A stretch of DNA of 64,000 nucleotides from Bacteroidales bacterium (GTDB taxonomy: Bacteria; Bacteroidota; Bacteroidia; Bacteroidales; UBA3663). Location of the stretch: the NCBI GenBank assembly GCA_017548545.1, contig JAFYZW010000127.1, positions 24,201-88,200 of the forward strand, written 5' to 3'. Positions 7,000 through 62,823 of the stretch are shown here, piece by piece. Position 1 is the stretch's first letter, and the number at the start of each line of letters is the position of its first letter. Made by a program: the position numbers and the translations under genes. A model generated the notes under the pieces. The model worked only from the letters and a program-made list of their open reading frames with translations, did no database searches and had not been told where the DNA came from.

Positions 7000-8028
7000 T
7001 CATTTGATCCAGGGGAGGATGGCGAGAATGATACCGACGAGTTGGATGATGAGTATCCACCATTCGACAAGGGGATGATGAGCATTGGCTTGATGGATGG
7101 TGAGCAGTAGGGCAAGCAACAAGGCGAGGGTGACAAGGTGAATGGAGAGGTGGGAAGCATCGAGGATGAGCAGTACAATGAAGGCAATGCTGATTATAGA
7201 GAGCATCATGATCGACGCTTCGGCTCGCACGCTTTGTCCCAAATCGACGGCAAGGCTGGTGAGTGTGTGAATGAGTAGGAGCAGAACCACATAAACCAAT
7301 AGGGCGAGTTGCCAAGGGGAAAAAAGGGTTTGAGTGGTATGATGAGCTTGAGGGGGTTGAAAGGTTGGAAGTGGCGCGCTTAGGAGACGATATGGGCTAT
7401 AGGCTATGATCATCTGGTCGGCAGCTTCAATGCCCCCCTCTTTACTTCCCAATAATGGGAGGATGCAGAGGATGAGATAGATGATCCAGATACCGAGCAC
7501 GGTGCCGGTGATGGCACTGAGCAGGTTTCGGGGACTAAGACAACGCATATAATATCCCGCGATAGGCAGCAGAAGTACGAGGAGGATGAGGTGGGGATGT
7601 AGGGTGGAGATAAGGCCGATGATGAGACCGAGCAACAAATGCTTGATGATGGCTATACGCCGCTGCCAAAGGCTCATCTGGAGCGAGATGATGGTGATGA
7701 TAGCGAGCTGCTGCAAAAGGGGAGTTAAGGGGGTTGAGAGGGTTGAAGGGTTTGAGAGGTTTGAGGGGAAGAGACAGATGACCGAGCATTGCACTACGGT
7801 GAGTAGAGGCCAACCGATGGCGAAGGCCTTGACACTGGCTCCTCCGTCGAGTCGGAAACGTGCGACAATATGTCGGATGCCTAAAGTGAGCAGTCCGGCA
7901 ATGATCCAACCGAGGATGAGTGTTCGTGGTGGAGCAGTGTCCAACAGCATGAGCGCCACAACAAGCCCTAGGCTCAAGAAGATGAGCAAGGGGGTGATGT
8001 GGCGATATGTGGTCAGGGGAGCATACAT
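7000..8028 (-). CDS. Hypothetical polytopic inner-membrane protein
   Basis: 342 aa, almost entirely hydrophobic helices, with no motif I recognise. It starts 2 nt after the purD stop. It carries an in-frame 9-bp repeat insert encoding PSNLSNPSTLSTPLTPL. Confidence 0.5.
   Translation of the reverse strand: MYAPLTTYRHITPLLIFLSLGLVVALMLLDTAPPRTLILGWIIAGLLTLGIRHIVARFRLDGGASVKAFAIGWPLLTVVQCSVICLFPSNLSNPSTLSTPLTPLLQQLAIITIISLQMSLWQRRIAIIKHLLLGLIIGLISTLHPHLILLVLLLPIAGYYMRCLSPRNLLSAITGTVLGIWIIYLILCILPLLGSKEGGIEAADQMIIAYSPYRLLSAPLPTFQPPQAHHTTQTLFSPWQLALLVYVVLLLLIHTLTSLAVDLGQSVRAEASIMMLSIISIAFIVLLILDASHLSIHLVTLALLLALLLTIHQANAHHPLVEWWILIIQLVGIILAILPWIK
7721..7774 (-). repeat. 9-bp-periodic repeat array, locus A, inside the membrane-protein CDS
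   Basis: The plus strand reads ggagttaag ggggttgag agggttgaa gggtttgag aggtttgag gggaagaga. The reverse complement gives CTCAAACCT/CTCAAACCC/TTCAACCCT/CTCAACCCC units. Confidence 0.85.
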
Positions 8029-8030
8029 GG

Positions 8031-9368
8031 TCAGAGGGCGAGATCGCGGCCGATGTCGCGGCGATAGTATTTGCCTTCGAACTGGATGAGTTCGGCACCA
8101 CGCATCGATTGGGCGAGGGCTTCGGATAGTGTGGGGCCATAGGAGGTGACAGCGATGACGCGTCCGCCTGCGGTGACGATGGCATCGTCCTTCCGGGCTG
8201 TGCCTGCATGGAAAAGGATGGAGCGGCGAGCCGAGTCGGCGGGGGAGACGATGCCTTGGGTGAATAGTGGGTTGTCCATCCCTGTCATTACTTTGCCCTT
8301 TTCGTACGAACCAGGATAGCCGCCGCTGACGAGCATGACGGTGACGGCGGCGCGCGGATCGACTTCGAGAGCCTTCTGGTCGAGGTCGCCATCAGCTACA
8401 CCGAGGAGGAGTTCGACAAGGTCGCTCTGGATGCGGGGCATGACAACTTCGGTCTCGGGGTCGCCCATGCGGACGTTGTACTCGATGACCATGGGATCGC
8501 CGGCATGATATTGCTGGATGTCGCGGTCGATGCGGATGAGGCCCAGGAAGATGAAGCCCTGATAGCGGAGCCCTTCTTGCCGGAGGCCTGCGATGGTGGG
8601 GCGGACGATGCGTTCCTCGACCTTGTGCATAAACTGCTCGTCGGCGAAGGGTACGGGCGAGCAGTTGCCCATGCCTCCGGTGTTGGGGCCTGTATCGCCT
8701 TCGCCTATGCGCTTGTAGTCCTTTGCGACGGGCAGGATCTTGTAGTGCAGGCCGTCGGTGAGCACGAAGACGGAGCATTCGATGCCTGAGAGGAACTCCT
8801 CGATGACGACGATGGCCGAAGCTGCGCCGAACATGCCGTCGAGCATGGCGCGGAGTTCGCGTCGGGCTTCGTCGAGGGTGGGGAGGATGAGCACGCCCTT
8901 GCCGGCTGCCAGTCCGTCGGCCTTGAGCACATAGGGTGCCTGGAGCTGCTCAAGGAAAAGGCAGGCTTCGTCGTACTGACTGGCATTGAACGAACGATAG
9001 CGGGCCGTGGGGATGGCGTGGCGCGTCATGAACCCCTTGGCGAAGTCCTTTGAGCCTTCGAGCTGGGCTGCGGCACGGCTTGGACCGATGACGCGGATGG
9101 CCTGGAGCCGAGGGTCGCCCTTGATGTAATCGTAGATTCCATTGACCAAGGGGTCTTCGGGGCCTACCACGATCATGCCGATGTTCTGTTGGAGGCAAAA
9201 TTCGCCTATCTTGTCAAATTCGCCCACCTTGATGGGGACGTTCAGGCCATAGGCTGATGTGCCTGCGTTGCCCGGGGCGATGAAGAGTTGTTCACACTTG
9301 GGGCTTTGTGCCAGTTTCCAGGCGATGGCGCATTCGCGGCCGCCACTGCCGAGTAAGAGGATGTTCAT
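8031..9368 (-). CDS. purD: Phosphoribosylamine--glycine ligase
   Basis: [19 protein letters not shown], an ATP-grasp core, and [15 protein letters not shown] are all hallmark PurD motifs. Confidence 0.95.
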
Positions 9369-11503
9369 AAGTGCTCGTCGAAATAGCGTGAGATATTATT
9401 TAAAAGGTGTACACGGTCGCGGCCTCGCACGTTGTGCTCGTGACCGATGTACATCAGATAGTCGGGGTAGGTGCCATTGGCTACCGCATTCTTGAGGAAC
9501 TGCATCGACATCTGCGGGACGACGGTGCCGTCCTGGTCGTCGTGGATGATGAGCAGGTGCCCGCGCAGCTTTTCAGTCTGGTCGATCAAGGTGGTGGCTA
9601 TATATCCCTCGGGGTTGTTGTCGGGTGTGCCCATATAGCGCTCGCCGTACATCACTTCGTAGCGACTCCAGTCGAGCACGGGACCACCGCAGACACCCAC
9701 CTTGAACGTGTCGGGGTAGTTGAGCATCATATAGGTTGTCATGAAGCCTCCGTAACTCCATCCGTAGATGCCTATGCGGTCGGGATCGACATAGGGCAGT
9801 GTCTTGAGATATCCGACACCTTGGAGCTGGTCGAGCGCCTCCTCTTGGCCGAGGTTGTGCCAGATGGCCTGCTCGAAGGCGATGCCGCGATTGTCGGAGC
9901 CGCGTCCGTCGATGGTAAAGACGACATAGCCTCGGTTGGCCATGTAGCAATCCCATCCAGGCAGACCCCACTGGAAGCCGTCGGTGACAAGCTGGGCGTG
10001 GGGGCCGTTGTAGAGATAAACGATGGTGGGATATCGTTTGCCGGGATTGTCGGCATAATCGCGGGGCTTGACCAGACGATAGTAGAGGTCGGTCACCCCA
10101 TCGGCGGCCTTGAGCGTGCCAAGTTCCACTTCGGGACGTGCCAACGCGGGGTGCTTGTCGTTCTGGAGATAAGGATTGTCGGCGGTGTAGAGCACCTTGG
10201 TCGTGGCGGGGCGGCCGTTTCGGAGGCTAATCAGCTGGCAGGTGCGTGGTGTCGCATAGTTGGTGTAGGTGTCATAGACCTGCGTGAACTGTTTGTTGAC
10301 CTTGATGCTATGACGGCCTTCCGCTTGGGTGATGCGGGTGATTTTCGGGTTATGGGTTATGGATTTTTTGGGAATGGCTACGCTGAAGAGATTGCTTTCG
10401 AGCGGACTGTCGGCGGCGGCCATGAAATAGAGGAACCTAGCGGCTGGGTCGGCACCGACGATTGAACTGATGTCGAAGTTGCCCTTGGTCAACTGGAGGC
10501 ACGTAACCTTGTCGGCAGCCATGTTGTAAAGATAAGCCTGCATGTAGCCGTCGCGCTCACTGAGCCAGACGAAGCGGTCGTTGGAACCTGGGAGGAAGTA
10601 GACGGGATGCTTCGGCTCGACGTACTTGTCGGAAGTTTCGGTGAAGAGGGTTCGGACGAACTCGCCTGTGTGGGCATCATAGACGTTCATCTCGACATAG
10701 TTCTGCAGACGGTTGACTTCGGCAATGAGGATTTGACGGCCATCGGGGCGCCATGTGATATTGGTCAGATAATGATCCGGAGCGTTGATGCCGGAAGCGG
10801 TGCGCGAGGCATCTGTCCCTGAGCACAATGGCTGGGCTTCAGGCTTCCCGTTGGTTTTGAGGAAGACCGTCTGCTGACTGTCGGGGTTGTAGATGCCGAG
10901 GGTGACCTGGTGACTCGTCATGCCCGCCATCGGATAGCGTATCCACTTGACTTCGGCTTCCTGTGGATCGGTCTGCAGCAGGGGGTATCGGCCCACCATC
11001 GACTGGTCCATGCGATAGAATGCCAGCAAGTGGCCCTTTGGACTCCAGAAGATGCCTCCGTTGATGCCGAACTCGTTGCGATGGACGGATTGTCCCCACA
11101 CGATGTCGGACTGCCCGGGGTCGGGCGAATCGCTGGCGGCGTCAGGGTCGCTGACCTGATGGCGCACGGGGGTGTCATCATCGGTGATCTGCTCCACCCA
11201 CAGGCGGTCGCCTTCGCACAAGGCTCTCCACAGGCGATCGGCACTGGGCTCACCTTTTTCGCCCATACCCTGAGGCTGGGCGCTGGCTGCATCTTCGGGC
11301 AAGGTATAATGGAACTCCCCCTGCTCATCGAAATAGGTATTGAGGAGCGAGGGGGTATAGATGTAGTCGGGATGTCCTGGCGTGAGCTGCGCCATCGTGG
11401 GCAGTTTTCCCTCGCTTTGAGGGATGATGCTCAGGATGGTTTGTGCTGAAGCGATGCCAATCATTGATGTTGCCAATATCGTGGTGAGCAGGGTTTTGAG
11501 CAT
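9365..11503 (-). CDS. S9-family serine peptidase, dipeptidyl-peptidase IV type
   Basis: Signal peptide, an N-terminal beta-propeller-like region ([16 protein letters not shown]), the catalytic GWSYGG, and C-terminal DDQDGTV / GHEHN. It has a 4-nt ATGA overlap with purD. Confidence 0.85.
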
Positions 11504-11538
11504 GGTCGGAGTGGTCGGAATGGTCGGAATACTCGGAG
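11503..11538. repeat. 9-bp tandem repeat (TGGTCGGAR x4) filling the spacer between the methyltransferase stop and the peptidase start
   Basis: tggtcggag tggtcggaa tggtcggaa tactcggag. The 36-nt spacer between the stop (11540-11542) and the ATG (11503-11501) is essentially four 9-mers. The minus-strand unit YTCCGACC is close to the main family's YTCGAACC. Confidence 0.85.
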
Positions 11539-11539
11539 G

Positions 11540-14195: not shown

Positions 14196-14198
14196 TGA

Positions 14199-20711: not shown

Positions 20712-21617
20712 ATGAAAAGAATTTTCTTATTGACATGGGTGATATTGCTCATCCCTGTGTATCTTTTGGCGCAGGATGAACTGCCGCGTCCCGTTACCAA
20801 TATCCTTTCTCTACGTTTGGGTCAGGGCAAGATGCGCGACACCTATCTGACTCCTCTGCTTTATACTGGTAGCAATATCAGCCTCGAAGGGCAACGCTGG
20901 CGCATGCATCGCAATCTCGATTGGACCAGCTGGCAGCAGGCCGACATCATGTTTTCGACTGGCGAAGATTATGGACACGACAGCGAGGCATGGACAGGAC
21001 GTCTGCGTTACTGTTATGGTATCCTCCGTCGTTGGTCCGACTGTCTCGACCCCACCACCCTTGACGTTCGCAGCGAGAGCTCCTCATGGTCATTTTATCT
21101 GGGACCATACGCAGGCATAGACCTCGGCTTCGACTACAACCTCAAGCTGGCATCGTCCAACAATCCTGCCACCGCACGTGTCACCACCAACCTCGGCGCT
21201 GCTGGTGCAGTGTGCTATCGGTTCCAGACACCAGCAGCGCAAGGCATGAGAGTAATGCTACAGGCACATGCCCCATTGCTTGGCATGGGATTCTGCCCGG
21301 AGTACGGAGCCAGCTATTATGAGACGTTCTACCTCGACTCGTCCTCCGACACTTTCCATTTTACATCGTTGCACAACCAGCAGGATTTCGATGTGCAGCT
21401 TGCCGTCGATTTCCCAATGGCTATTATCCCGTGGTTCCGCAGATTTGATTCCGTGGTGCGTCTGGGTGGTTCGTATCACATCGAGACGATGGATATAAAT
21501 CATATTACCACACGTTACAGTAGCCTTGAGTTCGTTATCGGCTGGGTCTATCAGTACCTGCCCTTCAGTCGCCGTAAGGCAGGTCTCTTAAAACGTTCGC
21601 CCTACAATGCATATTGA
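20712..21617 (+). CDS. Hypothetical secreted / outer-membrane protein
   Basis: Signal peptide MKRIFLLTWVILLIPVYLLAQ, rich in aromatic and Gly residues as beta-barrel proteins are. No motif I can name with confidence. Confidence 0.45.
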   Translation: MKRIFLLTWVILLIPVYLLAQDELPRPVTNILSLRLGQGKMRDTYLTPLLYTGSNISLEGQRWRMHRNLDWTSWQQADIMFSTGEDYGHDSEAWTGRLRYCYGILRRWSDCLDPTTLDVRSESSSWSFYLGPYAGIDLGFDYNLKLASSNNPATARVTTNLGAAGAVCYRFQTPAAQGMRVMLQAHAPLLGMGFCPEYGASYYETFYLDSSSDTFHFTSLHNQQDFDVQLAVDFPMAIIPWFRRFDSVVRLGGSYHIETMDINHITTRYSSLEFVIGWVYQYLPFSRRKAGLLKRSPYNAY

Positions 21618-22795: not shown

Positions 22796-22803
22796 TATCT
22801 TTG
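22796..22803 (+). promoter_or_regulatory. -7 box TATCTTTG for tRNA-Leu
   Basis: TAnnTTTG match 19 nt upstream of the mature tRNA 5' end. Confidence 0.6.
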
Positions 22804-22821
22804 CGCCCGCAAATTCGATAG

Positions 22822-22903
22822 GCGGGTATGCTGAAATTGGTAGACAGGCCAGACTTAGGATCTGGTGTCGCGAGGCGTGTGGGTTCGAGTCCCACTACCC
22901 GTA
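22822..22903 (+). tRNA. tRNA-Leu (anticodon UAG), class II with a long variable arm, no encoded CCA
   Basis: Folded by hand. The acceptor stem is GCGGGTA/TACCCGT, with G1-U72. The D-loop is GAAATTGGTAGAC. The anticodon stem CCAGA/TCTGG carries loop CTTAGGA. The T-arm is GTGGG-TTCGAGT-CCCAC, with discriminator A. Confidence 0.9.
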
Positions 22904-38011: not shown

Positions 38012-38083
38012 CCGCGTCCATTCCAATTGTTTTTTTTAATAATGGATAATTGTTATTTGTTAATTATTAATTGTTAATTATAT

Positions 38084-39148: not shown

Positions 39149-39149
39149 G

Positions 39150-39178
39150 GGGAGGTTAAGAAAGGTTCGAAAGGTTAT
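39150..39178 (-). repeat. 9-bp-periodic repeat array, locus C, in the manC|argB spacer (G-rich strand on +)
   Basis: gaggttaag aaaggttcg aaaggttat. It fills the 28-nt spacer between the manC stop and the argB ATG. Confidence 0.75.
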
Positions 39179-41140: not shown

Positions 41141-41210
41141 CCTTTCGAACCTTCGAACCATTAGAACTCTTCGAACCCCTCCATAACCCCTAACCTCTAA
41201 CCTCTCCTCC
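41113..41210 (+). repeat. 9-bp-periodic repeat array, locus D, spanning the kinase stop codon and the whole kinase|regulator spacer
   Basis: ...cccccctcttaa cctttcgaa ccttcgaa ccattagaa ctcttcgaa cccctccataa cccctaa cctctaa cctctcctcctc ATG. The kinase TAA stop (41138-41140) lies inside a unit. Confidence 0.8.
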
Positions 41211-41212
41211 TC

Positions 41213-44698: not shown

Positions 44699-44718
44699 AG
44701 ATTATTTTGTTATTTTTC

Positions 44719-44763
44719 TAGATTTTCTAGAGGTTCTAGATTTCCTAGGGACTCTAGAGGGAA
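44719..44763. repeat. 9-bp tandem repeat built on CTAG-centred palindromic hexamers, in the hutU|hutH spacer
   Basis: tagattttc tagaggttc tagatttcc tagggactc tagagggaa. The minus strand gives TCTAGA x4 and CCTAGG x1 at exact 9-bp spacing. Confidence 0.85.
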
Positions 44764-49512: not shown

Positions 49513-50109
49513 TTATTCGAATACAATTTTACAACGGGCAGGATTGTAACCTGTTTGCGACAACATGGCACGGAAGAATACCTCTGCCTTGGCTTCGGCC
49601 TGCGGGATGATCTCGAGCTTCCTGATGGTGGCATTCACCTGCTTCTCGCCACTTGCCAGCACCGCGTTGCGCTCGGCAGCTGTGAGGTCGTTCGAAATGC
49701 CTGTGATGCGTTCATAGACGTGGCGAACCTCGCTGTTGGGGATATCGATGTCGAACACCTGGCAGTGGGGTAGGGTGAGCACAGCGGTGCTGTCGTCGGC
49801 GATGACGAGCGCATCGGGTTGTATCCTGCGTGTATCGATGCCCGCGGTGACGTGAGCCGTAAGGCTGTAGAGCACCTCCTTGTCGCCGAGGACACGCCAT
49901 ACGGTCTGATCCTTGCTGCCGCAGATCTCCTTGAGCGTATATTCGACGAATACCAGCCGACTCTCATCCTGCAGGCGGGAGATGCGTTGCCGGGCCAATT
50001 CCTCCCGACGCTGGGCATCGTCACCCTGCATGAGGGAGCACGAGCCGAGCATTGCCAGCAAAGCGAGCACGATAAACGTGGTGAGACGATGATGTGGTTT
50101 ATGGGTCAT
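49513..50109 (-). CDS. DUF4230-like lipoprotein (paralogue of the downstream gene)
   Basis: Lipobox AMLGSC and HVTAGIDTRRI ... AVLTLPHCQVF, analogous to the neighbouring gene. Confidence 0.5.
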   Translation of the reverse strand: MTHKPHHRLTTFIVLALLAMLGSCSLMQGDDAQRREELARQRISRLQDESRLVFVEYTLKEICGSKDQTVWRVLGDKEVLYSLTAHVTAGIDTRRIQPDALVIADDSTAVLTLPHCQVFDIDIPNSEVRHVYERITGISNDLTAAERNAVLASGEKQVNATIRKLEIIPQAEAKAEVFFRAMLSQTGYNPARCKIVFE

Positions 50110-50142
50110 GGTTCAGGGTTCATGGGTTATGGGTTATGGGTT
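50101..50142. repeat. 7-bp tandem repeat (ATGGGTT x3 perfect, 6 units overall) spanning the start codon and 5' UTR of the DUF4230-like gene
   Basis: atgggtc atggttc agggttc atgggtt atgggtt atgggtt. The start codon (50109-50107) lies inside the second and third units. Confidence 0.85.
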
Positions 50143-50159
50143 ATAGAGTTTTGATGCCG

Positions 50160-50442: not shown

Positions 50443-50450
50443 TATTTTTG
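50443..50450 (+). promoter_or_regulatory. -7 box TATTTTTG for the HTCS gene
   Basis: TAnnTTTG match 70 nt upstream of the ATG at 50520. Confidence 0.5.
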
Positions 50451-50519
50451 CACTCGTAAATCATTGATTTCTTTCAATGCATAAATGGAAATTTATTTGG
50501 CTTTAATGATTTATTAACC

Positions 50520-53495: not shown

Positions 53496-53540
53496 CTTTT
53501 TAGTGCATCATTCGTTTCATTGTACGTAGGTAAATACCCG

Positions 53541-53548
53541 TATCTTTG
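53541..53548 (+). promoter_or_regulatory. -7 box TATCTTTG of the fructan-PUL susC operon
   Basis: TATCTTTGCACC. This predicts a roughly 95-nt leader that contains repeat locus G. Confidence 0.6.
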
Positions 53549-53567
53549 CACCGAGAAATCCGAGACC

Positions 53568-53611
53568 CCTCAAACCTTTCGAACCTTTCGAACCCCTCGA
53601 ACCCTTCGAAC
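53568..53611 (+). repeat. 9-bp-periodic repeat array, locus G, in the susC 5' leader
   Basis: cctcaaacc tttcgaacc tttcgaacc cctcgaacc cttcgaac. Confidence 0.85.
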
Positions 53612-53647
53612 TAAACAACCACATTAATAATAAAAAACCAAACGCAA

Positions 53648-56600
53648 ATGAAACGATTCCTTTCACTCGCAGTCATGGTGATCCTCACCACAGTCTTGGC
53701 CATCGGCCAGACATTGACTGTACATGGCACCGTCACCTCTAAGACCGACGGTGAGCCTATCATCGGCGCTTCGGTCTATGTGACCGGTAACTCCACTACT
53801 GGCACGATGACCGACTTCGACGGTAACTTTACCCTCGACGTACCCCAGGGCACTGAGTCAATCACAGTGTCGTACATCGGTTTCCAGACCCAGCAGCTCG
53901 CACCACAGGCACAGATGAACATCGTGCTGAGCGAAGATGCCGAGATGCTCGAAGAATTTGTAGTTGTCGGATATACCGTGCAGCGCAAGGCTGACCTCAC
54001 CGGTGCCGTATCCGTCATGGACATGAAACAGCCCACTTCGGAGGGCAACGCTTCGATGGTCAACTCGATGCAGGGCCGTCTGCCTGGTGTCAATGTCACC
54101 ACCGACGCAGCTCCTGGTGGCGGCGGCTCCACCATCCGAATCCGTGGTATGAGCACCGTCAACTCCACCGACCCACTCTACGTCATCGACGGAGTGCCCA
54201 CCACCGAGAACCTCAACTCTCTCAACCCCTCCGACATCGAAAGCATACAGGTGCTGAAGGATGCAGCCTCCGCTTCCATCTATGGTTCGCGTGCCGCCAA
54301 CGGCGTCATCATCATCACCACCAAGCGTGGCAAGGGCGACCGCCTCACCGTCAATGTGGGCTACAGCGCCTCGATGCAGACCATCGCCCAGAAGTACGAC
54401 CTTCTCGATGCAGCCCAGTGGGGCAAGGTTTATCTGCAGGCCACTTCCAACGACGGCTCCATGCCATCCATCTTGCTCTACGATGCCAGCGGTAACCTCA
54501 ATGCCACAGCCAATGGTTACACTCTGGCCAACAACGACTGGCAGGATGCCATCTACCGCACGGCTTGGACCCACAATACCAGCGCCAGCGTCAGCAACAG
54601 CGGCGAAAAGGGCACCATGATGCTCTCGCTCAACTACATCAACCAGGATGGTATTCAGAAGGAGACCTTCTACCAGCGCTTCAGCGCACGTGTCAACAGC
54701 ACCTACAACATCAACAAGTGGTTCAGCGTAGGCGAGAACCTCATGGTGGCCAAATGGATGCAGAACTACGACAGTTCGCGCGGCGACCGTGGCATCGCAT
54801 CGCTTGCCATGCTGCAGCACCCGGGCATCCCCACCTATCAGCCCGATGGAAAGTTCAGCAGCCCGATGCTCATCGCATCGTCCGACTATGCCAACCCCAT
54901 GCAGAGCCTCTGGAACGCTCGCGACAACTCCAATGAGAACTGGCGCATCTTCGGCAATGCTTACGCCGAATGGAAGCCTGTGAAGGGCCTCACCCTCAAG
55001 TCGAACATCGGTATCGAGCATATCCAGTTCAACAGCTCATCTCTCGGTCGCAAGGCCCTCGAAACCGACGAGAACTCCGTATCTCGCAGCTATGGCCAGG
55101 GTGATACCTGGACTTGGACCAACACCGCAACCTACGTAGGCAACTGGGGCAAACACAACCTCGTTGGCCTGGCAGGTGTCGAGGCTATCGGTTACAAGTA
55201 CGATGGCATGTCGGCCAACCGCAAGGGATTTGCTTTCGAGGACGTGAACTACATGGTTCTCGATGCCGGCGAAGGAACCCAGACCAATGGTGGTGGCAAG
55301 TCCGAATGGGCTCTGTTCAGCTACTTCTTCAAGGCCGACTACAATTATGCCGACCGCTACCTGGCCAGCTTCACCATCCGTCGTGATGCCACCAGCCGCC
55401 TTTACAAGGACAACAACTCGGGTATCTTCCCCGCCTTCACTGCAGCTTGGCGTCCCACTGCCGAGGCCTTCTGGCCGGAGAATGATTTCCTCTCAGACTT
55501 CAAGATCCGTTTCGGTTGGGGACAGAACGGTAACTCGGCCATCTCGAACAACTACGCCTACTGGAGCACCTACGCTTACGATGCCGGCAACTCGTCCTAC
55601 GACCTCAACGGTACCAACACCAACGTGACAACAGGTATCAAGGTGGCCACCACCGGTAACAAGGACCTCAAGTGGGAGACCACCACACAGACCAACGTCG
55701 GCGTGGATGCACAGTTCTTCCGTGGTGCCCTCAGCCTCAGCGCCGACTGGTATGTCAAGAAGACCACCGACATGATCACCATTCCTCCCGTGCTCTCGGT
55801 AGCAGGCGAGAATGCAGCCACCTACCGTAACACCGGCGATATGAAGAACAGCGGTTTCGAGCTCACCCTCGGCTACCACTCTCCCGAATATGGAGGCTTC
55901 AGCTGGGATGCTTCGCTCAACGTGGCCAAGTATAAGAATGAGGTAGTGAAGCTTTCCGACAACGTCAGCTACATCGGATCGGAAATCCGACTCATGGAAG
56001 GCGAGCCAATGGGCGTGTACTACGGCTACGTGACCGACGGCATCTTCCAGACCCAGGATGAAGTGGACAACTATGCTGTGCAGCAAGGCAAGGGCGTAGG
56101 CCGTATCAAGTATCGTGACCTCGATGGCAACGGTATCATCAACGAGTCCGACCAGTGCATCATCGGCGATCCGAATCCCGACTGGACAGGCGGTCTGAAC
56201 CTCGACTTCCACTACAAGGGACTTACGCTGAGCACCTTCTTCACAGGCGAGTTTGGCTTCGACATCTTCAACTCCAACAAGCGTCAGCTCGAATTCATGA
56301 GCTCAGGCAACACCTACACCAACCGTGGTGCCGATATCCTCGAAGCCTGGACTTCCAACAACCCATCGGCTACCATCCCAGCCGTGTCCTTCTCCGACAA
56401 CAACGACGAGAAGCGTATGTCAACCTACTTCGTCGAGGATGGTTCATACGTCAAGATGAAGTACATCAAACTGAGCTATGACCTTCAGCCCAAGCTCTGC
56501 AAGTACATCTCAGCTTCTTCCCTTAACGTCTTTGCCCAGCTCGAGAACGTGTTCACCATCACCGACTACACCGGTCTCGATCCCGAACTCAACCTCGGTG

Positions 56601-56677
56601 GCTATGGCTGCCGCGAAGACAATGGCGCTTATCCACGCTCGCGTACCTTCTCACTTGGTGTAAATGTAACCTTCTAA
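53648..56677 (+). CDS. SusC/RagA-family TonB-dependent transporter (fructan PUL)
   Basis: LTVHGTVTSKTDGEPIIGASVYVTGNSTTGTMTDFDGNFTL, plug IESIQVLKDAASASIYGSRAANGVIIITTK, and terminal SLGVNVTF. Confidence 0.95.
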   Translation: MKRFLSLAVMVILTTVLAIGQTLTVHGTVTSKTDGEPIIGASVYVTGNSTTGTMTDFDGNFTLDVPQGTESITVSYIGFQTQQLAPQAQMNIVLSEDAEMLEEFVVVGYTVQRKADLTGAVSVMDMKQPTSEGNASMVNSMQGRLPGVNVTTDAAPGGGGSTIRIRGMSTVNSTDPLYVIDGVPTTENLNSLNPSDIESIQVLKDAASASIYGSRAANGVIIITTKRGKGDRLTVNVGYSASMQTIAQKYDLLDAAQWGKVYLQATSNDGSMPSILLYDASGNLNATANGYTLANNDWQDAIYRTAWTHNTSASVSNSGEKGTMMLSLNYINQDGIQKETFYQRFSARVNSTYNINKWFSVGENLMVAKWMQNYDSSRGDRGIASLAMLQHPGIPTYQPDGKFSSPMLIASSDYANPMQSLWNARDNSNENWRIFGNAYAEWKPVKGLTLKSNIGIEHIQFNSSSLGRKALETDENSVSRSYGQGDTWTWTNTATYVGNWGKHNLVGLAGVEAIGYKYDGMSANRKGFAFEDVNYMVLDAGEGTQTNGGGKSEWALFSYFFKADYNYADRYLASFTIRRDATSRLYKDNNSGIFPAFTAAWRPTAEAFWPENDFLSDFKIRFGWGQNGNSAISNNYAYWSTYAYDAGNSSYDLNGTNTNVTTGIKVATTGNKDLKWETTTQTNVGVDAQFFRGALSLSADWYVKKTTDMITIPPVLSVAGENAATYRNTGDMKNSGFELTLGYHSPEYGGFSWDASLNVAKYKNEVVKLSDNVSYIGSEIRLMEGEPMGVYYGYVTDGIFQTQDEVDNYAVQQGKGVGRIKYRDLDGNGIINESDQCIIGDPNPDWTGGLNLDFHYKGLTLSTFFTGEFGFDIFNSNKRQLEFMSSGNTYTNRGADILEAWTSNNPSATIPAVSFSDNNDEKRMSTYFVEDGSYVKMKYIKLSYDLQPKLCKYISASSLNVFAQLENVFTITDYTGLDPELNLGGYGCREDNGAYPRSRTFSLGVNVTF

Positions 56678-56692
56678 ATAATCGTCCACATT

Positions 56693-58375
56693 ATGAAAAC
56701 TATATATAAGAATATCGCTGCAGTTCTCTTCTGCTCTGCTTCTCTTTTCCTGGTCGGCTGCGATGACATGCTCGAGACCGAGCCCTACGGACAGTTCACC
56801 GACGAACAGCTCGACGATGATGCCATCGAAGGTCTGATAGCCGCTGCTTACGCTGGCGTCGAGGCTCACTTCTTCGGCAACAACCCCGCCTTCTCCGGTC
56901 CATCCACCAACTGGATCTTCGACGTTCGTTCCGACGATGCCCTGAAGGGTGGCGGTGGTATCTCGATGGAGAGCAACATTCACCAGCTTGAGATCTCGAA
57001 CCTCACTTCGACCAACCCCTCCTGTCTTTACAAGTGGCAGAACAACTACTATGCCATCAGCCGTGTGCACACTGCCATCAATGCAGTGTCGGGCGCATCA
57101 AGCCTCAGCGAGTCAACCAAGGCAACCTACTTCGCCGAACTGAAGTTCCTCCGCGCCTTCTATTACTTCGATCTCTATCGCCTCTTCGAGCGCTTCCCCT
57201 ATTTCACCGAGGAGGATAATGCCAACGAGATTCGTTACGACCGCTACACCCGCGATGAGATGTTCCAGCTGATCGTTGCCGACCTTGAGGAGGCCTACAA
57301 CAACCTGCCTACCTCTCAGCCCGCTGCCGGTCGCGTGAACAAGTATGGCGCTGCTGCCATGTTGGCCCGCGTGAATGCTTACGAGAGCCGTTGGAGCGAG
57401 GTGGCCAATTATGCCAAGACCGTTATCGACAGCAATGTCTATTCGCTCTACGACAATTTCGGCGATATGTCGAAGATCAGTTTCAACAACACCAAGGAGT
57501 CCATCTTTGCACTCCAGTGCTCGAATGTGAACGACAATTCGCACATCAACTGGAGCAACCTTCTCAACGTCACCTACAGCGAAGGCAACCTCTACGGCAA
57601 CGGCGATGACTTCTTCCTGGCTTCGCAGAACCTGGTCAACGCCTTCCGCACCAACCCCGACACTGGTCTGCCATACCTCAACAACGATGCTCCGGCCGAG
57701 AATGTCAGCGAGAACTATTCTGGTTCTGTCGATCCCCGTCTCGACTATACTGTAGGTCGCGTGGGTTACCCATGGCGTGACAATGGTACAGGCGCCTACA
57801 TCTATGGCGATGCCTGGTGCCGTGCCAAGGATGTCTATGGCGAATACAGCGGAAAGAAGTGGTGCATCAGCCCCGACGACCCGATGTGTCTCCACACCTA
57901 TCCCTATTCTTCACCCTTGAACTTCATCTTCATCCGCTATGCCGATGTCATCCTGCTTCGTGCCGAGGCTCTCATCGAGCTGGGCGACAACAGTGGACTC
58001 AACGAGGCCCGCACCCTCATCAACCAGGTTCGTGCCAAGGCTATCCGCACTGCCGATCAGGCTGGTAGTTACACCCCCGTGGATCTCGATGTCAACAAGG
58101 CCGACTACTTCGTGCAGGAGTATCCCGCAAGCGGCTGGACACAGGATTATGCCCGCAAGGCCGTACGCATGGAGCGCCGTCTGGAGCTCGCCATGGAAGG
58201 CCAGCGCTGGTTCGACCTCTGCCGTTGGGGCAATGTGGTTGACGTGATGAACGCCTACTTCCAGTCGGAATCCAAGTTCCACAGCTATTATGGCGAAGCC
58301 TCGATGGATGCCAGCGAGAAGTTCCTCCCCATTCCTTACGATGAGGTCAACAACAGCTACGGTCTCTACGAATAA
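56693..58375 (+). CDS. SusD/RagB-family lipoprotein (fructan PUL)
   Basis: Lipobox LFLVGC, plus FLRAFYYFDLYRLFERFPY and RRLELAMEGQRWFDLCRWG. Confidence 0.95.
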   Translation: MKTIYKNIAAVLFCSASLFLVGCDDMLETEPYGQFTDEQLDDDAIEGLIAAAYAGVEAHFFGNNPAFSGPSTNWIFDVRSDDALKGGGGISMESNIHQLEISNLTSTNPSCLYKWQNNYYAISRVHTAINAVSGASSLSESTKATYFAELKFLRAFYYFDLYRLFERFPYFTEEDNANEIRYDRYTRDEMFQLIVADLEEAYNNLPTSQPAAGRVNKYGAAAMLARVNAYESRWSEVANYAKTVIDSNVYSLYDNFGDMSKISFNNTKESIFALQCSNVNDNSHINWSNLLNVTYSEGNLYGNGDDFFLASQNLVNAFRTNPDTGLPYLNNDAPAENVSENYSGSVDPRLDYTVGRVGYPWRDNGTGAYIYGDAWCRAKDVYGEYSGKKWCISPDDPMCLHTYPYSSPLNFIFIRYADVILLRAEALIELGDNSGLNEARTLINQVRAKAIRTADQAGSYTPVDLDVNKADYFVQEYPASGWTQDYARKAVRMERRLELAMEGQRWFDLCRWGNVVDVMNAYFQSESKFHSYYGEASMDASEKFLPIPYDEVNNSYGLYE

Positions 58376-58380
58376 GAATC

Positions 58381-58425
58381 TCTGTTCTTTCGAATATTCT
58401 GAATACTCTGAATACTCCGATAAAA
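58381..58425. repeat. 9-bp tandem repeat (CTGAATACT type) in the susD|lipoprotein spacer
   Basis: tctgttctt tcgaatatt ctgaatact ctgaatact ccgataaaa. Confidence 0.8.
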
Positions 58426-58452
58426 TAAATCATCCGGTAAATCCCAAAAAAA

Positions 58453-60456
58453 ATGAAAACATCATACAAGTATATCGCAGCTGCCCTCATCTCGGGTGTC
58501 GCATTCCTCACTTCCTGCAGCGATGTGGAGATTCCCGAAGCAGCCAACAAGGATCTTGGCACAGTGGCAAGTGTTTCGCAGAGCGTCGATGGCCGCGAGC
58601 TTACGCTCACCTGGTCTCCCGTGGCTGGAGCCGTTGGCTATCTCGTCTATTGCAATGGCGAACTGGTGGCTCAGACCACCGAGACGACCTATACTACCCT
58701 CTGTCCCTACGAGCAAACCTTCACCTACACCATCAAGTATATCGATGCCAATGGTCTTGTCTCTCTCGGACAAAGTATCTTCGTCGATGCCATCCCCGCT
58801 CCTCCGAAACCCCAGGGTGGTGCTACGTTGGTAGGCTATCTGCTCACCGCCGACAACTATAACGCCCTTCCTGACGACGATGAGGTGGCAGCCGCCCAGT
58901 GGTTCCAGGAGAACTATGTGGCCAAGAACGAAGGCACCTTCATCACTGTCGAGCAGCTCGGTGTCCTCAGTCCTGCCGATTGCCCGGCCCTTTGGATCCA
59001 CATCGATCGCGTGGGTATTGGCATGGGTTATGAGAACCTCCCGTTCGACGCAGCAGCCTTGTCGGCCCTCCACGATTATCTGCGCGACGGCGGCAACCTC
59101 TACCTTTCGAAGCATGCCACCCAGCTTGTCAATGGCATCGGTCGTATCTCCGACAACTACGCTCCCGGCATCTTCGGTGACGGCAATGGCGGTTCGGGTG
59201 ACGACGTTTGGTGCGTCAACAACGTCATCGGCAGCGGCCAGGCCACCAAGTACGACCACACAGCCCATGCCATCTTTGCAGGCATCGAACTCACCGACCC
59301 CAACGGTTACGGCTTCCCCAACTTCCCGCTCGAAGGCCCCGGCCTGCGTGAAGACCACAACTGCATGTGGGACCTCAACAGCTACGGATTCTCGGGCGAT
59401 CCCAACGTCGTAGCCAACTGGGAGGCAGCCACCACCTCAACCGTCCTCGCCACCTGGGGACACGTGCAGGACTACTGCTGTGCAGGCATCGTCGAGTTCC
59501 TTGGTGCAGGTGAATTCCTCGGCAAGATCGTCGCCAATGGTTTGTCAGCCTATGAGTTCAACCAAGAAGGTGGCAACATCTACCAGAACAATGTGAACCG
59601 TCTCACGGCCAATACCCTCGACTACCTGCGTGGTGCCGTTTCGACCAAGGCTGCCTACGTGCTTACAGCCAACAGTATCGACGAACTGCCCGACGACGAC
59701 GAGGTAGCTGCTGCAACCTGGTTCAAGCAGACTTACGTCGATGCAGGCAAGGGTGCCTTTGTTACCCCCGCACAGATTGCAGGTCTCGACATCAACGAGT
59801 ATCCCGTCCTTTGGGTTCAGATCGACCGCATTGGCATCGGTATCGGCTACGAAAACCTGCCATTCGACGCAGATGCACTCACCGCACTGCACAACTATAT
59901 GCGCGACGGTGGCAACCTCTACCTCTCGAAGCACGCCACCCAGCTCATCAGCGGCATCGCACGCATTGCCGACAACTATGCTCCTGGCCTCTTCGGCGAC
60001 GGTAATGGCGGTTCAGGCGACGATGTATGGTGCGTCAACAACGTCATCGGCAGCGGTCAGGCTACCAAGTACGACCATACCAGCCACGATATCTTTGCTG
60101 GCATCGAGCTCACCGACCCCAATGGTTACGGCTTCCCCAACTTCCCGCTCGAAGGCCCCGGTCTTCGCGAAGACCACAACTGCATGTGGGATCTCAACGC
60201 CTACGGTTTCACGGGCGACCCCAACGTCGTTGCCAACTGGGAGAAGGCAACCAACTCGACCGTCCTCGCCACTTGGGGACATGTGCAGGACTACTGCTGT
60301 GCAGGCATCGTCGAGTTCCATCCCGAAGGTGAGTTCCTCGGCAGCGCCATCTGCAATGGTCTGTCGGCCTACGAGTTCAATCAGGAGGGCGGCAACGTCT
60401 ATCAGGCCAATGTCGAGCTCCTCACCAAGAACACCATCGACTATCTGATGAAGTAA
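58453..60456 (+). CDS. SusE-position surface lipoprotein: an Fn3-like N-terminal domain plus two tandem copies of a roughly 265-aa domain (possibly DUF4960-like); putative surface glycan-binding protein
   Basis: Lipobox AFLTSC. LTLTWSPVAGAVGYLVY is Fn3-like. Residues about 126-392 and 399-665 are near-duplicates, for example GGNLYLSKHATQL, FGDGNGGSGDDVWCVNNVIGSGQATKYDHT and FPNFPLEGPGLREDHNCMWDLN in both. Confidence 0.6.
   Translation: MKTSYKYIAAALISGVAFLTSCSDVEIPEAANKDLGTVASVSQSVDGRELTLTWSPVAGAVGYLVYCNGELVAQTTETTYTTLCPYEQTFTYTIKYIDANGLVSLGQSIFVDAIPAPPKPQGGATLVGYLLTADNYNALPDDDEVAAAQWFQENYVAKNEGTFITVEQLGVLSPADCPALWIHIDRVGIGMGYENLPFDAAALSALHDYLRDGGNLYLSKHATQLVNGIGRISDNYAPGIFGDGNGGSGDDVWCVNNVIGSGQATKYDHTAHAIFAGIELTDPNGYGFPNFPLEGPGLREDHNCMWDLNSYGFSGDPNVVANWEAATTSTVLATWGHVQDYCCAGIVEFLGAGEFLGKIVANGLSAYEFNQEGGNIYQNNVNRLTANTLDYLRGAVSTKAAYVLTANSIDELPDDDEVAAATWFKQTYVDAGKGAFVTPAQIAGLDINEYPVLWVQIDRIGIGIGYENLPFDADALTALHNYMRDGGNLYLSKHATQLISGIARIADNYAPGLFGDGNGGSGDDVWCVNNVIGSGQATKYDHTSHDIFAGIELTDPNGYGFPNFPLEGPGLREDHNCMWDLNAYGFTGDPNVVANWEKATNSTVLATWGHVQDYCCAGIVEFHPEGEFLGSAICNGLSAYEFNQEGGNVYQANVELLTKNTIDYLMK
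58828..60447 (+). repeat. Intragenic tandem duplication (2 x about 800 bp, period 819 bp) within the surface lipoprotein gene
   Basis: The protein repeats are offset by exactly 273 aa. The DNA of the two copies is visibly similar, for example 59090-59130 against 59909-59949. Confidence 0.8.
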
Positions 60457-60465
60457 TAACCCAAA

Positions 60466-60499
60466 CTGCGGGGAGTCGCGACCCCGCAGTCTTTTTCTT
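60466..60499 (+). terminator. Rho-independent-type terminator between the surface lipoprotein gene and the first GH32 gene
   Basis: CTGCGGGG-AGTCGCGA-CCCCGCAG (8-bp GC stem) followed by TCTTTTTCTT. Confidence 0.7.
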
Positions 60500-60504
60500 A
60501 AATC

Positions 60505-62823
60505 ATGATTATGAAAAAGCTTGGAACATTCCTTTTCGTAGCTTCCCTGGGCCTGCTCACCGTGGGCCAGGCCCAGGTTCTTTCCATTCCGATGGACGAC
60601 GCTACTGGTATTACCGGAGCCCTCTCCCCGCTCATCGTGAAGGGTGTGTCGGGCGGTGCCGTTCGTTTCGACGGCTACAGCCAGTACCTGAACCAGTCGG
60701 CCGACCTTACGGCTTGCTCGTCCGATGTGACCTTCAGTCTTTGGACAGCCCTCGAGACCTATCCCATGATGAACATCGACGTCGATAAGGAGGAATACAC
60801 CAGCATCGCTGGAAACATCGACGAAAGCGCCAAGACGGGTATGGCTTTCGAAGTCAGCAACCGTGGCAGTTATCAGTTCAAATGCTACGTCAACAACTCT
60901 GTCATCGTCGTTCCCGGTGAAGGCAAGTTGCCCAAATATGCGTGGAACAACCTCGTTGCCACCATCTCGGTTCCTGAGAGTGGCCGTGGCTCGGTGGTAC
61001 TTTACCTCAATGGCCAGCAGGTCGGCACAGGCACCACAGCACGTCGTGCCACCTTCTCAAGCGGTTCGGCCGCTTTCCTCGTTGGCAAGAACACCGCCGA
61101 TGTCCGTCAGGACAAGTTCCTGCTCAACACCATCAATGGTATCGTAGATGAAATAAATGTATATAATACGTTCTGGAGCGCCGAAGAAGTGGCTTCTGCC
61201 TACAGTGCCTCACTGCCTGCCGTAGCTCCCGAACTCTCTTATCCCGCATCCTATTGGGCCGACCATCTGCTTCGTCCCAAGTTCCATGGCATGCCCAGCC
61301 ACGCCTGGACCAACGAGAGCCACGGCATGACCTACTCCGATGGCCAGTGGCATGTGTTCTTCCAGAAGAACGGCAACGGTCCCTACATGAGCCGTCTGCA
61401 TTGGGGCCACATCGTGAGCGAGAACCTCTACAACTGGACCGAGGTCAAGACGGCCATCGACCCAGCCGAAAGCTACGACATCAAGGGCTGCTGGTCGGGC
61501 TGCGTAGCTGAGGACGAGAAGATCTTCGGCCAGTATCCCGGCATCATCTACACCGGTGTCGATTACGGCAAGGCCATGATCAGTTTCGCTTCGCCCACCG
61601 ATGCCACCCTCCTCGATTGGACCAAGGCTTCGAACAACCCGCGCATCAACGGCAAGCCTGCCGGACTCTCCGACGACTTCCGCGACCCCTATTTCTTCCG
61701 CACCTCCACAGGCGCATACATCATCGTAGGTTCGAGCAAGGCCGGCATCGGCTGCTGCACCCTGCACAAGTACAACGAAAGTGCGGGTACCTGGAGCAAC
61801 GACGGCACCCTTTTCTTCCAAGGCACCAGTGCCTCGTCGCATGGCACGTTCTGGGAGATGCCTAACGTCACACCGATGGGCAACGACCTGTACCTCTTCA
61901 CCGTCACCCCGTTGGGAACCAGCCTCGGCGTGCGCACTCTCTATTGGGTGGGCAAGATTGATGCCAACGGGCAGTTCCAGCCCATCAGCGGCACCTGGCC
62001 CCGCACGGTCGAGCTCAGCGGCATGACACGCGACGGCTACGGTATGCTTTCACCCACCATCTATCAGCACGATGGCAAGACCATCGCCCTTGGTATCGTC
62101 CCCGACAAGGTGGCCTCGTCGGTCAATTACGACCTCGGCTGGGCGCACTGCTACAGCCTGCCACGCGAATGGAGTCTCGATGCCGACAATCTGCTCGTGC
62201 AGAAACCGTACAGTGGACTCACAGGTATGCGGAAGGAGGAAGGTGCCTACAGCAAGGCCAACTTCCAGCTCAATGGCACCGAGGCCATCCCGACCGTCGC
62301 AGGTCGCCAGGTCGAAGTCCTTGCCACCTTCCAGGCAGGTAACGCTGCCTTTGGCGTGAATGTGCTGAAGAATGCTACGGGTCAGGCGCAGATCAAGGTG
62401 AGCGGCTCGACGCTTACGGTCGATCTCACCAGTCTGCATCGCACGGTCAACGATGGCGCTGCATTTGCCGGCAAGTACGAGAGTGCGCTGCCCGCCAGCA
62501 TAGCTACAGGCACGGAGGTGAAGCTGCACATCTTCCTCGATGGTTCCATCCTCGATATCTTCGTGAACGACACTTACGCCACCTCCATCCGCGTCTTCTG
62601 CAACGATGCCGACGCCACGGGCGTAGAGCTCTTCACCGATGCCAACACTCAGGTTGTTTCGGCCCAGGCCTGGACACTCGACCCTTTGCAGGGACAAGGG
62701 CAGGGGATAGAGGAGGTGAGGATAGGTTCTGAAGGGTTCGAAAGGGATAAGAGGGGGGTGGTCTTTCGTATCGACGATGACCATTCCTTGCATCTCTATC
62801 GTGAAGGAATCCGCATATTTTAG
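60505..62823 (+). CDS. GH32-family protein with an N-terminal LamG/concanavalin-like domain; variant nucleophile motif
   Basis: Signal peptide and LamG-like GGAVRFDGYSQYL ... VDEINVYN. The GH32 blocks are HAWTNESHGM (in place of WMNDPNG), FRDPYFF (RDP) and FWEMPNV (EC-type acid/base). The last roughly 45 codons run through repeat locus H. Confidence 0.75.
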   Translation: MIMKKLGTFLFVASLGLLTVGQAQVLSIPMDDATGITGALSPLIVKGVSGGAVRFDGYSQYLNQSADLTACSSDVTFSLWTALETYPMMNIDVDKEEYTSIAGNIDESAKTGMAFEVSNRGSYQFKCYVNNSVIVVPGEGKLPKYAWNNLVATISVPESGRGSVVLYLNGQQVGTGTTARRATFSSGSAAFLVGKNTADVRQDKFLLNTINGIVDEINVYNTFWSAEEVASAYSASLPAVAPELSYPASYWADHLLRPKFHGMPSHAWTNESHGMTYSDGQWHVFFQKNGNGPYMSRLHWGHIVSENLYNWTEVKTAIDPAESYDIKGCWSGCVAEDEKIFGQYPGIIYTGVDYGKAMISFASPTDATLLDWTKASNNPRINGKPAGLSDDFRDPYFFRTSTGAYIIVGSSKAGIGCCTLHKYNESAGTWSNDGTLFFQGTSASSHGTFWEMPNVTPMGNDLYLFTVTPLGTSLGVRTLYWVGKIDANGQFQPISGTWPRTVELSGMTRDGYGMLSPTIYQHDGKTIALGIVPDKVASSVNYDLGWAHCYSLPREWSLDADNLLVQKPYSGLTGMRKEEGAYSKANFQLNGTEAIPTVAGRQVEVLATFQAGNAAFGVNVLKNATGQAQIKVSGSTLTVDLTSLHRTVNDGAAFAGKYESALPASIATGTEVKLHIFLDGSILDIFVNDTYATSIRVFCNDADATGVELFTDANTQVVSAQAWTLDPLQGQGQGIEEVRIGSEGFERDKRGVVFRIDDDHSLHLYREGIRIF
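62711..62760 (-). repeat. 9-bp-periodic repeat array, locus H (G-rich strand on +), at the 3' end of the GH32 ORF
   Basis: aggaggtga ggataggttctga agggttcga aagggataa gaggggggt. The reverse complement of 62734-62758, CCCCCCTCTTATCCCTTTCGAACCC, nearly equals locus D at 41129-41150. Confidence 0.7.

Follow-up and report, generated by a model that had tools for sequence, protein, structure and literature searches.

A dispersed family of tandem 9-bp repeats in the genes, leaders and spacers of a Bacteroidales genome

Introduction

The closest described counterparts to the repeats reported here are the short tandemly repeated repetitive DNAs of cyanobacteria (STRR sequences), which are dispersed short tandem units in operon spacers and promoter regions, are capable of forming hairpins and have no known function (PMC2670836). 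They also occur inside the RNase P RNA gene (Vioque 1997, as reported in PMC2858038). Here, we analyze a 64,000-nucleotide stretch from an uncultured Bacteroidales bacterium (assembly GCA_017548545.1, contig JAFYZW010000127.1, positions 24,201 to 88,200; hereafter the window), in which a 9-bp unit, YYTCRAACC, containing the palindrome TTCGAA, forms tandem arrays in spacers, in a 5' leader and, in several reading frames, inside unrelated genes. We refer to this family as F1. Our preferred explanation, to which we assign a probability of roughly 0.6, is that F1 is a dispersed minisatellite family, neutral or selfish DNA comparable to the STRR heptamers but with a 9-bp unit. A literature search on nonamer repeats, Bacteroidetes minisatellites and the literal unit strings found no description of this family.

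As with the STRR sequences, F1 is a dispersed short tandem family that lies mostly between genes: it occupies nine loci in 64 kb, and about 60% of 129 arrays, those counted in Bacteroidota loci among the matches listed in a genome scan, have no long open reading frame (ORF) spanning them. Heptamer families also coexist with it in the window (GGGTTAT and AATTGTT). The published STRR units, which we take to be CCCCAGT and similar, are 7 bp long, whereas F1 and two further families, F2 (unit TCCGANNAY) and F3 (unit TCTAGAANN), have a 9-bp period, and the unit sequences show no similarity. The hosts differ as well, heterocyst-forming cyanobacteria in one case and rumen Bacteroidales, other Bacteroidota and Acidobacteriota in the other, and many F1 copies are translated within protein genes in several frames.

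Rickettsia palindromic elements are single palindromic elements of roughly 100-150 bp. An earlier reading of the window without database searches (hereafter the sequence-only reading) named them as the nearest analogy, and the comparison is apt for tolerated in-frame insertion: they are selfish repeats that occupy non-coding DNA and, in frame, insertion-tolerant sites in unrelated genes, and F1 is found at both kinds of site. However, they are not tandem 9-mers and do not vary in length by whole units, and the STRR sequences are the closer match. Repetitive extragenic palindromic (REP) sequences, imperfect palindromes of 20-40 bp, are associated with RAYT transposases. They carry a GTAG or CGTC tag according to the account given in PMC3733652. 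A short 27-nt insert in relatives of the window resembles REP sequences and the bacterial interspersed mosaic elements in being short, dispersed and hairpin-capable; the F1 unit, in contrast, has just a 6-bp palindromic core, no such tag and many intragenic copies, and no gene for a RAYT or other transposase was found within the window. Within the Bacteroidota, a MITE (a miniature transposable element with inverted repeats) bearing a minisatellite is described for Porphyromonas gingivalis in PMC4596501. This element and the BOX elements of Streptococcus pneumoniae are modular and dispersed, with an internal module in variable number, but their units are longer and they are bounded by defined ends or terminal inverted repeats, whereas F1 has no conserved flanks. 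Finally, the simple sequence repeats and variable-number tandem repeats of contingency loci share with F1 a tandem unit number altered by slippage in promoters, leaders and ORFs. They differ in that one F1 unit family is common to many loci, in that six assemblies of the window strain show no polymorphism, and in that the 9-bp unit keeps the frame and hence allows no on/off switching.

Results

F1 arrays in the window

To locate arrays, we scanned the window with position weight matrix chains of at least three units and used 200 dinucleotide-preserving shuffles of the window as the control. Six such chains were found, compared to a shuffle mean of 0.02 (maximum 2), and the density of arrays thus lies far above that of shuffled sequence. 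Tandem Repeats Finder reports a period of 9 at 7731, 38571, 41139, 52196, 52989 and 53565, and F1 is the biggest direct-repeat family of the window. All eight loci listed in the sequence-only reading hold the units it described, and we add a ninth at 7345-7371. These nine loci and a remnant are as follows (the manC and amino-acid-kinase genes, the LytS/LytTR pair and the fructan locus are described at the end of the Results).

7345-7371 (-): weak F1 array, three degenerate units (CTTCCAACC TTTCAACCC CCTCAAGCT) in the polytopic membrane-protein ORF 7000-8028 (-); sense reading PTFQPPQA; identified by matrix scan and translation
7721-7774 (-): F1 array, 4-5 units, in the same ORF 7000-8028 (-) between hydrophobic segments; read SNL/SNP/STL/STP (PSNLSNPSTLSTP)
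38572-38607 (+): F1 array, 4 units, in manC; read LNPLKPLEPLEP
39149-39178 (-): short F1 array, about 2-3 units (ATAACC TTTCGAACC TTTCTTAACC TCCCC), filling the 28-bp spacer between manC and an amino-acid-kinase gene; the sense strand is G-rich
41113-41212 (+): irregular F1 array with spacings of 8-10 bp, followed by TAACCYC 7-mers; covers the final 9 codons of a LytS-type kinase and the entire 72-bp spacer to the LytTR regulator start
52191-52250 (+): F1 array, 6 units, in the HATPase_c hairpin loop of the hybrid two-component sensor (HTCS), between the N and DxGxG boxes; translated LEP/LDP/LKP (NLEPLDPLKPLEPLKPLE)
52992-53065 (+): F1 array, 7-8 units, in the linker that joins the receiver domain of the HTCS to its AraC domain; translated SNP/SNL/STP (STPSTSSNLSNPSNLSNPSN)
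53568-53612 (+): F1 array, 5 units, in the susC 5' leader between a conserved promoter region (GTATCTTTGCACCGAGAAATC) and a conserved A-rich stretch before the ATG
62711-62760 (-): degenerate F1 array, 3-4 units, in a loop some 20 aa from the C-terminus of GH32; antisense reading GSEGFERDKR
21075-21115 (+): degenerate F1 remnant (TCTCGACCC CACCACCCT and onward) in ORF 20712-21617; the related loci L046 and L058 carry 7 and 6 F1 units there, read SNP

The strong arrays contain 4 units at 38572-38607, 6 at 52196-52249, 7 at 52992-53055, 5 at 53568-53612 and 4 at 7731-7766 (-), while three loci (39149, 41113 and 62711) are short or irregular yet clearly F1-related. Each array spans 27-100 bp of tandem 9-mers without a long inverted repeat. 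No conserved flanks were seen, nor, as judged by eye, any consistent gradient that would indicate a direction of growth within arrays. The F1 unit occurs only in tandem and is never scattered as single copies: outside the arrays, 1 lone unit is seen where 5.1 ± 2.4 are expected. Because solitary units are not enriched, F1 is not an uptake-signal, Chi-like or binding-site motif.

Several other candidate explanations for the unit were rejected. Restriction-site avoidance was dismissed on the counts outside the arrays, where TTCGAA occurs 34 times (34.4 expected) and TCGA 603 times (605 expected). An origin in the tRNA T-loop (GGTTCGA) is at odds with the variant GGTTTGA, which on its sequence alone is unfit for a T-loop. 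Canonical G-quadruplex motifs number two in the window, both in arrays, at 7719-7750 (+, the G-rich strand) and 50116-50140; since the rule (G3+ N1-7)x4 fits these two arrays only, a G-quadruplex or i-motif seems not to be a property that the arrays share. A collagen-like Gly-X-Y reading (GGT TYG ARR) is used by none of the window arrays and by 7 of the 51 intragenic arrays of related loci among the matches listed.

A DNA unit read in several frames

The closest named relatives of the window are rumen 'Bacteroidales bacterium' metagenome-assembled genomes (MAGs) and 'Prevotellaceae' RUG465, at 75-85% nucleotide identity. The loci retrieved from relatives are denoted by L-numbers: L123 is 92% identical to the window over 22 kb, L111 comes from a reindeer-rumen MAG and L026 from RUG465.

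Translation confirms the frames that had been assigned to the intragenic copies in manC, at the two HTCS sites, in the membrane protein and in the GH32 gene. Across the sensor, manC and the other sites, F1 is read as LEP/LKP, as SNP/SNL, as antisense FEG or not at all, in four frames altogether. From this frame independence and from the copies in untranslated spacers, the sequence-only reading had argued that the conserved entity is DNA, not peptide, and comparison of single sites among relatives supports this view. When 120 hybrid sensor homologues are aligned, the HATPase_c hairpin holds five LEP-type units in the window, four in a 93%-identical homologue and three in an 83%-identical one. 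In sensors of about 74% identity, the hairpin consists of SNP/STP/SNL units, in others it is an unrelated A-rich segment, and in homologues of 63% identity or less, it is merely a turn of 5-6 residues. At the DNA level, the SNP and LEP versions of this hairpin align as one 9-bp repeat in a shifted frame, the window, L123 and L124 using LEP and the loci L126 and L026 using SNP. The receiver-AraC linker behaves in the same way among the homologues. The peptide segments are therefore absent from distant orthologues, and the same site is read in different frames in closer ones.

The proposal that intragenic copies fall only at permissive sites is supported by alignment to solved structures. Aligned to a solved histidine kinase (structure 7z8n), the sensor hairpin array falls in the loop that connects the N-box strand to the DxGxG box, and the manC array amounts to about 10 extra aa in a loop relative to structure 2x5s. 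The proteins that host arrays are unrelated to one another and include manC, the HTCS, GH32, DPP-IV, GH2, an M1 peptidase and an activase.

Length change between close relatives

Between close relatives, arrays are the main sites of length change, and they change by whole units, mostly in steps of 9, 18 or 27 bp. The manC orthologues that are 94-97% identical have lengths of 354, 357, 363 or 366 aa and differ in length at the array alone, where those of at least 94% identity carry 4 to 8 F1 units. In the comparison of the window with L123, all nine indels of at least 6 bp lie within tandem arrays, and four of the nine are 9 or 18 bp. The GH32 array contains 6-7 units in L124 (read FEG), 5 in L125, 3-4 degenerate units in the window and none in L126. 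Such variation in unit number appears only between relatives at roughly 90-97% identity.

Larger differences are found next to some of the arrays. Synteny between the window and L123 is lost within the GH32 array, from window 62745 (L123:22232) onward, and the GH32 gene of L123 has another C-terminus (792 aa) and other downstream genes, which together suggest a rearrangement breakpoint at this array. The kinase/LytTR spacer array of L123 (L123:576-711, corresponding to window 41141-41212) holds roughly 70 bp of additional inserted sequence that includes paired palindromes (CCCCCTGCTTAGGGGG ... CCCCCTAAGCAGGGGG). In RUG465 (L026:5509-5663, compared to window 53504-62841), the sensor gene is directly joined to the sequence that follows GH32 in the window; one lineage thus has, and the other lacks, the roughly 9.3 kb of genes from susC to GH32. 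The junctions of this segment lie about 60-80 bp or less from arrays.

Leaders, spacers and other tandem families

When gene models are applied, the non-coding arrays are non-randomly placed, each filling a 5' leader or a short intra-operon spacer. For F1, these sites are the susC leader and two spacers, one separating the LytS-type kinase gene from the LytTR gene and the other separating manC from the amino-acid-kinase gene. In the susC leader, the array lies between the Bacteroidetes promoter box TAnnTTTG and the conserved A-rich stretch before the ATG. Together with the intragenic copies, the array sites are thus leaders downstream of a promoter, short intra-operon spacers, and the loops, linkers and tails of proteins. 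Further tandem families with periods of 7 and 9 bp (F2, F3, AATTGTT and ATAACCC) fill other spacers and leaders of the window. The arrays outside F1 are as follows.

10347-10362 (+): (GGGTTAT)x2.3 in a loop encoded by the DPP-IV gene 9365-11503 (-); L111 has seven F1 units there in the opposite orientation
11504-11539 (-): F2, sense strand TCCGAGTAT TCCGACCAT TCCGACCAC TCCGACC, forming the whole 36-bp spacer between the RlmL-like gene and DPP-IV
38036-38081 (+): AATTGTT 7-mers in the manC 5' leader, lying between the TAnnTTTG box and the ATG; the unit recurs in 8 related loci
44714-44758 (-): F3, sense strand TCTAGAGTC CCTAGGAAA TCTAGAACC TCTAGAAAA TCTAGAAAA, in the hutU-hutH spacer
50095-50144 (-): 7-mers, sense ATAACCC / ATGAACC, in the 5' leader and start of a DUF4230 gene
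58392-58417 (+): F2 (GAATATTCT GAATACTCT GAATACTC) in the spacer separating susD from the levan-binding protein gene

F2, F3 and the AATTGTT 7-mer all recur in related genomes. Counted by period, the arrays of related loci show maxima at 9 bp (220 arrays) and 7 bp (74 arrays), in keeping with a general propensity for tandem repeats. L123 and L124 also have an F3 array in the hutU-hutH spacer; in the window, this array contains all four TCTAGA sites. The F2 array between susD and the levan-binding protein gene has 2.9 copies in the window, 4.8 in L123 and 10.7 in L124. The copy number of the DUF4230 leader array differs in each relative, and RUG465 has F1 arrays in this region. Arrays of different families can stand in for each other at one site: the susC leader has F1 in the window, F1 plus the 27-nt insert in L123, F2 in L124 and F2 again in L125 (eight units), while the array of L126 is irregular.

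A promoter or start-site motif, TATCTTTGCACCCGAAAATC, with the Bacteroidetes -7 box TAnnTTTG, has four copies in the window (22796-22815, 32839-32858, 50443-50462 and 53541-53560). The F2 unit resembles the start-site-proximal sequence AAATCCGAGA, and F2 may therefore derive from local duplication of leader sequence. We also considered whether arrays keep leaders unstructured. This idea was rejected, as the arrays fold modestly via their palindromic cores; the susC leader has a fold of -10.6 kcal/mol (z = -5.6) through pairing of the UUCGAA cores.

A 27-nt insert shared between loci

In relatives of the window, a fixed 27-nt sequence, CTTCYCTCGGACGCGACCAAMGGGAGC, is found inside arrays at unrelated loci, where it splits the F1 unit at TTCG^AACC (L123:13040-13075, L124:12410-12445 and the metagenome loci L275-L318). 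The sites include the manC array (where it is read ASLGRDQREQ), the susC leader and sensor linkers (read SDATKGSN). A metagenome scan recovered 54 copies in 44 distinct contexts, all from apparently rumen-type samples, and excision of the 27 nt restores the exact YYTCG|AACC unit in 30 of these 44 contexts. The insert is also found in tandem, at spacings of 36, 45 and 54 bp. No copy was found in the window.

Because the insert recurs at 44 different sites, arrays in these relatives do exchange sequence between loci. The sequence-only reading had reached a similar conclusion by another route, arguing that a longer 'head' (CCCCCCTCTTAWCC..TTTCGAACC) shared by two arrays in opposite orientation pointed to copying from a common source. 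The head is present at both named sites (41129-41150 and the reverse complement of 62734-62758), but YYTCTTAACC is a common variant unit of related genomes, so the head is not a specific element terminus. Copying between loci is accordingly supported by the insert and not by the head.

On a rumen metagenome contig, L302, an intergenic repeat of about 240 bp that begins with the 27-nt sequence occurs four times in 12 kb (1422-1660, 3552-3790, 7722-7960 and, inverted, about 10336-10600). It has no Rfam match and could be the source of the 27-nt insert or a larger mobile element.

Distribution, frames and strand bias

A scan of one genome per species for three exact consecutive F1 units yielded at least 116 loci, with several loci each in many genomes. 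Among the matches listed, to which all counts in this section apart from the viral ones refer, the multi-locus genomes comprise about 20 rumen and gut Bacteroidales MAGs, Saprospiraceae, one Chitinophagales MAG, Lentimicrobiaceae, Paludibacter, several long-read Acidobacteriota MAGs and one cultured isolate, Prevotella sp. P3-122. In a viral collection, F1 has 4 matches, whereas composition-matched permuted 9-mers have 17, 8 and more than 120; one of these controls (AARCCYTYC) overlaps F1 and another catches sequences resembling collagen-like Gly-X-Y repeats. As the controls match or exceed F1 in frequency, arrays of three units are common for any 9-mer in very large collections, and only genomes with several loci therefore count as evidence. 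Single-match genomes (Streptomyces, Kitasatospora, Thermopolyspora, Providencia and Bifidobacterium) were treated as background. Some of the Citrobacter and viral-collection matches may be collagen-like repeats, which we presume from the unit sequence.

For 51 intragenic arrays, the frames are SNP in 25, PQT in 16, LKP in 3 and antisense GLK in 7; no array uses the frame that contains a TGA stop. The C-rich strand is the sense strand in 45 of 54 intragenic arrays (45:9), and arrays within 150 bp upstream of a start codon are sense in 36 cases versus antisense in 13, gene calls being crude for these strand counts.

Genomic context

The window has a G+C content of 53% and appears to be core chromosome. 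Its genes include purD, DPP-IV, an RlmL-like methyltransferase, parC/gyrA, the hut operon, manC and a LytS/LytTR pair, along with a fructan utilization locus made up of a BT1754-type hybrid sensor (the HTCS), susC, susD, a levan-binding protein and GH32. The manC protein is found unaltered on 12 contigs from ruminant gut metagenomes. Six independent assemblies from the European Nucleotide Archive (ENA) and Logan are 100% identical to the window over up to 20.9 kb, spanning three arrays.

At gathering score, Rfam 15 gives a single match in the window, a tRNA gene at 22822-22903 (+). The exact protein of the sensor (50520-53399) is absent from the protein collection although same-contig neighbors are present, and the source gene call may start elsewhere. 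The levan-binding protein gene contains a 300-bp internal direct repeat (58977-59276 and 59796-60095, 79% identity) and two DUF4960-type stretches. On the + strand, the ATG at 63046 opens a frame (63046-64000) that is truncated by the window end; synteny with L124-L126 identifies it as a second GH32 gene, one that includes a DUF4980 domain, and the listed ORF 63142-63909 (-) is probably spurious.

Discussion

The biases in location, frame and strand lead us to infer that F1 arrays persist only where they are harmless, as would be expected of a neutral or selfish minisatellite family. Under this explanation, arrays would grow and shrink by replication slippage or unequal exchange, with pairing of the palindromic cores of adjacent units possibly aiding either process, and new arrays would be seeded and old ones homogenized by gene conversion or template switching from other arrays. 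Selection would purge harmful copies, so that the intragenic survivors are those whose periods are multiples of 3. This constraint on intragenic periods would explain why the 7-mers are essentially restricted to non-coding DNA and why F1, with its 9-bp period, can unlike them live inside genes. The C-rich sense strand would be favored if the encoded SNP, PQT and LEP peptides and a G-poor RNA are better tolerated.

A number of observations weigh against this explanation. The identity of the six window-strain assemblies, with no array variation, implies that turnover is not fast within the population. Slippage alone leaves unaccounted for both the dominance of one unit at many unrelated loci and the occurrence of similar multi-locus families in Saprospiraceae, Chitinophagales, Lentimicrobiaceae and Acidobacteriota. 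The leader or spacer position of arrays is kept in relatives even though the unit family changes, as from F1 to F2 in the susC leader, and a fixed position with a changing family is compatible with a hot spot and with a selected function alike. The 27-nt insert is also found at sites without an array, including a lone copy in an RHS-type gene, which looks more like transposition than conversion. An active, dedicated and sequence-specific copy-and-paste process, such as a RAYT/IS200-type single-strand transposase or reverse-transcriptase-templated insertion, could have made both the arrays and the hairpin-forming insert, with arrays as its serial products or preferred targets. It would operate across several phyla, writing in-frame loop peptides and rebuilding mRNA leaders. 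The fixed sequence and fixed insertion point of the insert (TTCG^AACC in 30 of 44 contexts), its solitary RHS copy, its place within the ~240-bp repeat found four times on one contig and its regular tandem spacings are what such a process might leave, as are the patchy cross-phylum spread of multi-locus families among the matches listed and the orthologous sites that hold arrays of another family or the opposite orientation. Nevertheless, the window contains neither a transposase nor a reverse transcriptase nor the insert itself, there are no visible target-site duplications or defined ends, and F1 arrays lack conserved flanks. As F1 is no commoner than the control 9-mers in the viral collection, the cross-phylum signal may in part be background. 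We regard such copy-and-paste as improbable, and it would, if true, represent a new class of very small mobile bacterial DNA.

The placement of arrays can also be read as function. The G-poor 9-mer arrays might be mRNA cis-elements on which leader length, stability, processing or the start of translation depends in a lineage without Shine-Dalgarno use, with copy number tuning expression and intragenic copies arising as by-products. In line with this, arrays are precisely positioned between the TAnnTTTG box, or the region of the transcription start, and the A-rich stretch that precedes the ATG, 36 sense arrays in related loci among the matches listed end 0-105 nt before the start codon (median near 20 nt), the sense strand is favored, and array position is held in five relatives despite the change of unit family. 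The STRR sequences of cyanobacterial operon spacers have themselves been proposed to affect transcript stability or translational coupling (PMC2670836). Yet about 40% of the arrays listed are intragenic and are read in various frames and either orientation; close relatives differ in unit sequence and copy number; the spacer array at 39149 is antisense; the leaders are not unstructured, as the susC leader folds; there is no match to an Rfam family; and leaders and spacers are the sole free DNA of a compact genome. On balance, a cis-regulatory role seems doubtful to us. Far less plausible is selection at the protein level for flexible low-complexity linkers rich in residues such as S, N and P, with the non-coding copies as coding remnants. 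The predominance of the SNP and PQT frames in long ORFs and the location at linkers and loops are as it would predict, but one site can read the same DNA in different frames, codon usage is locked to the unit, the GH32 copy is read antisense, the leader and spacer arrays lie in DNA that is non-coding in all relatives, and 60% of the arrays listed have no spanning ORF. Chance low-complexity sequence or an assembly artefact can be practically dismissed. Nothing more than the weakness of the three loci at 39149, 41113 and 62711 speaks for it, while shuffles yield 0.02 arrays against six, the six assemblies are identical, and arrays are found again in relatives at matching sites, in MAGs from long reads and in one cultured isolate; the concern that the arrays are an artefact of this contig is thereby refuted.

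If the description given here holds, F1 and related arrays would be the chief source of length variation among closely related rumen Bacteroidales, lengthening and shortening the loops of enzymes, sensors and glycoside hydrolases and altering the leaders of polysaccharide-utilization genes, from which effects on expression could follow. Effects on gene calling, on the alignment of orthologues and on MAG assembly are likely. That similar multi-locus families occur in other phyla raises the question of what sets the unit sequence, and Prevotella sp. P3-122, as a cultured carrier, makes experiments possible. The arrays would also provide a natural map of where proteins tolerate insertions, and, as 7-bp and 9-bp families share the spacers while 9-bp families alone persist in genes, a clean test of how selection filters selfish repeats.

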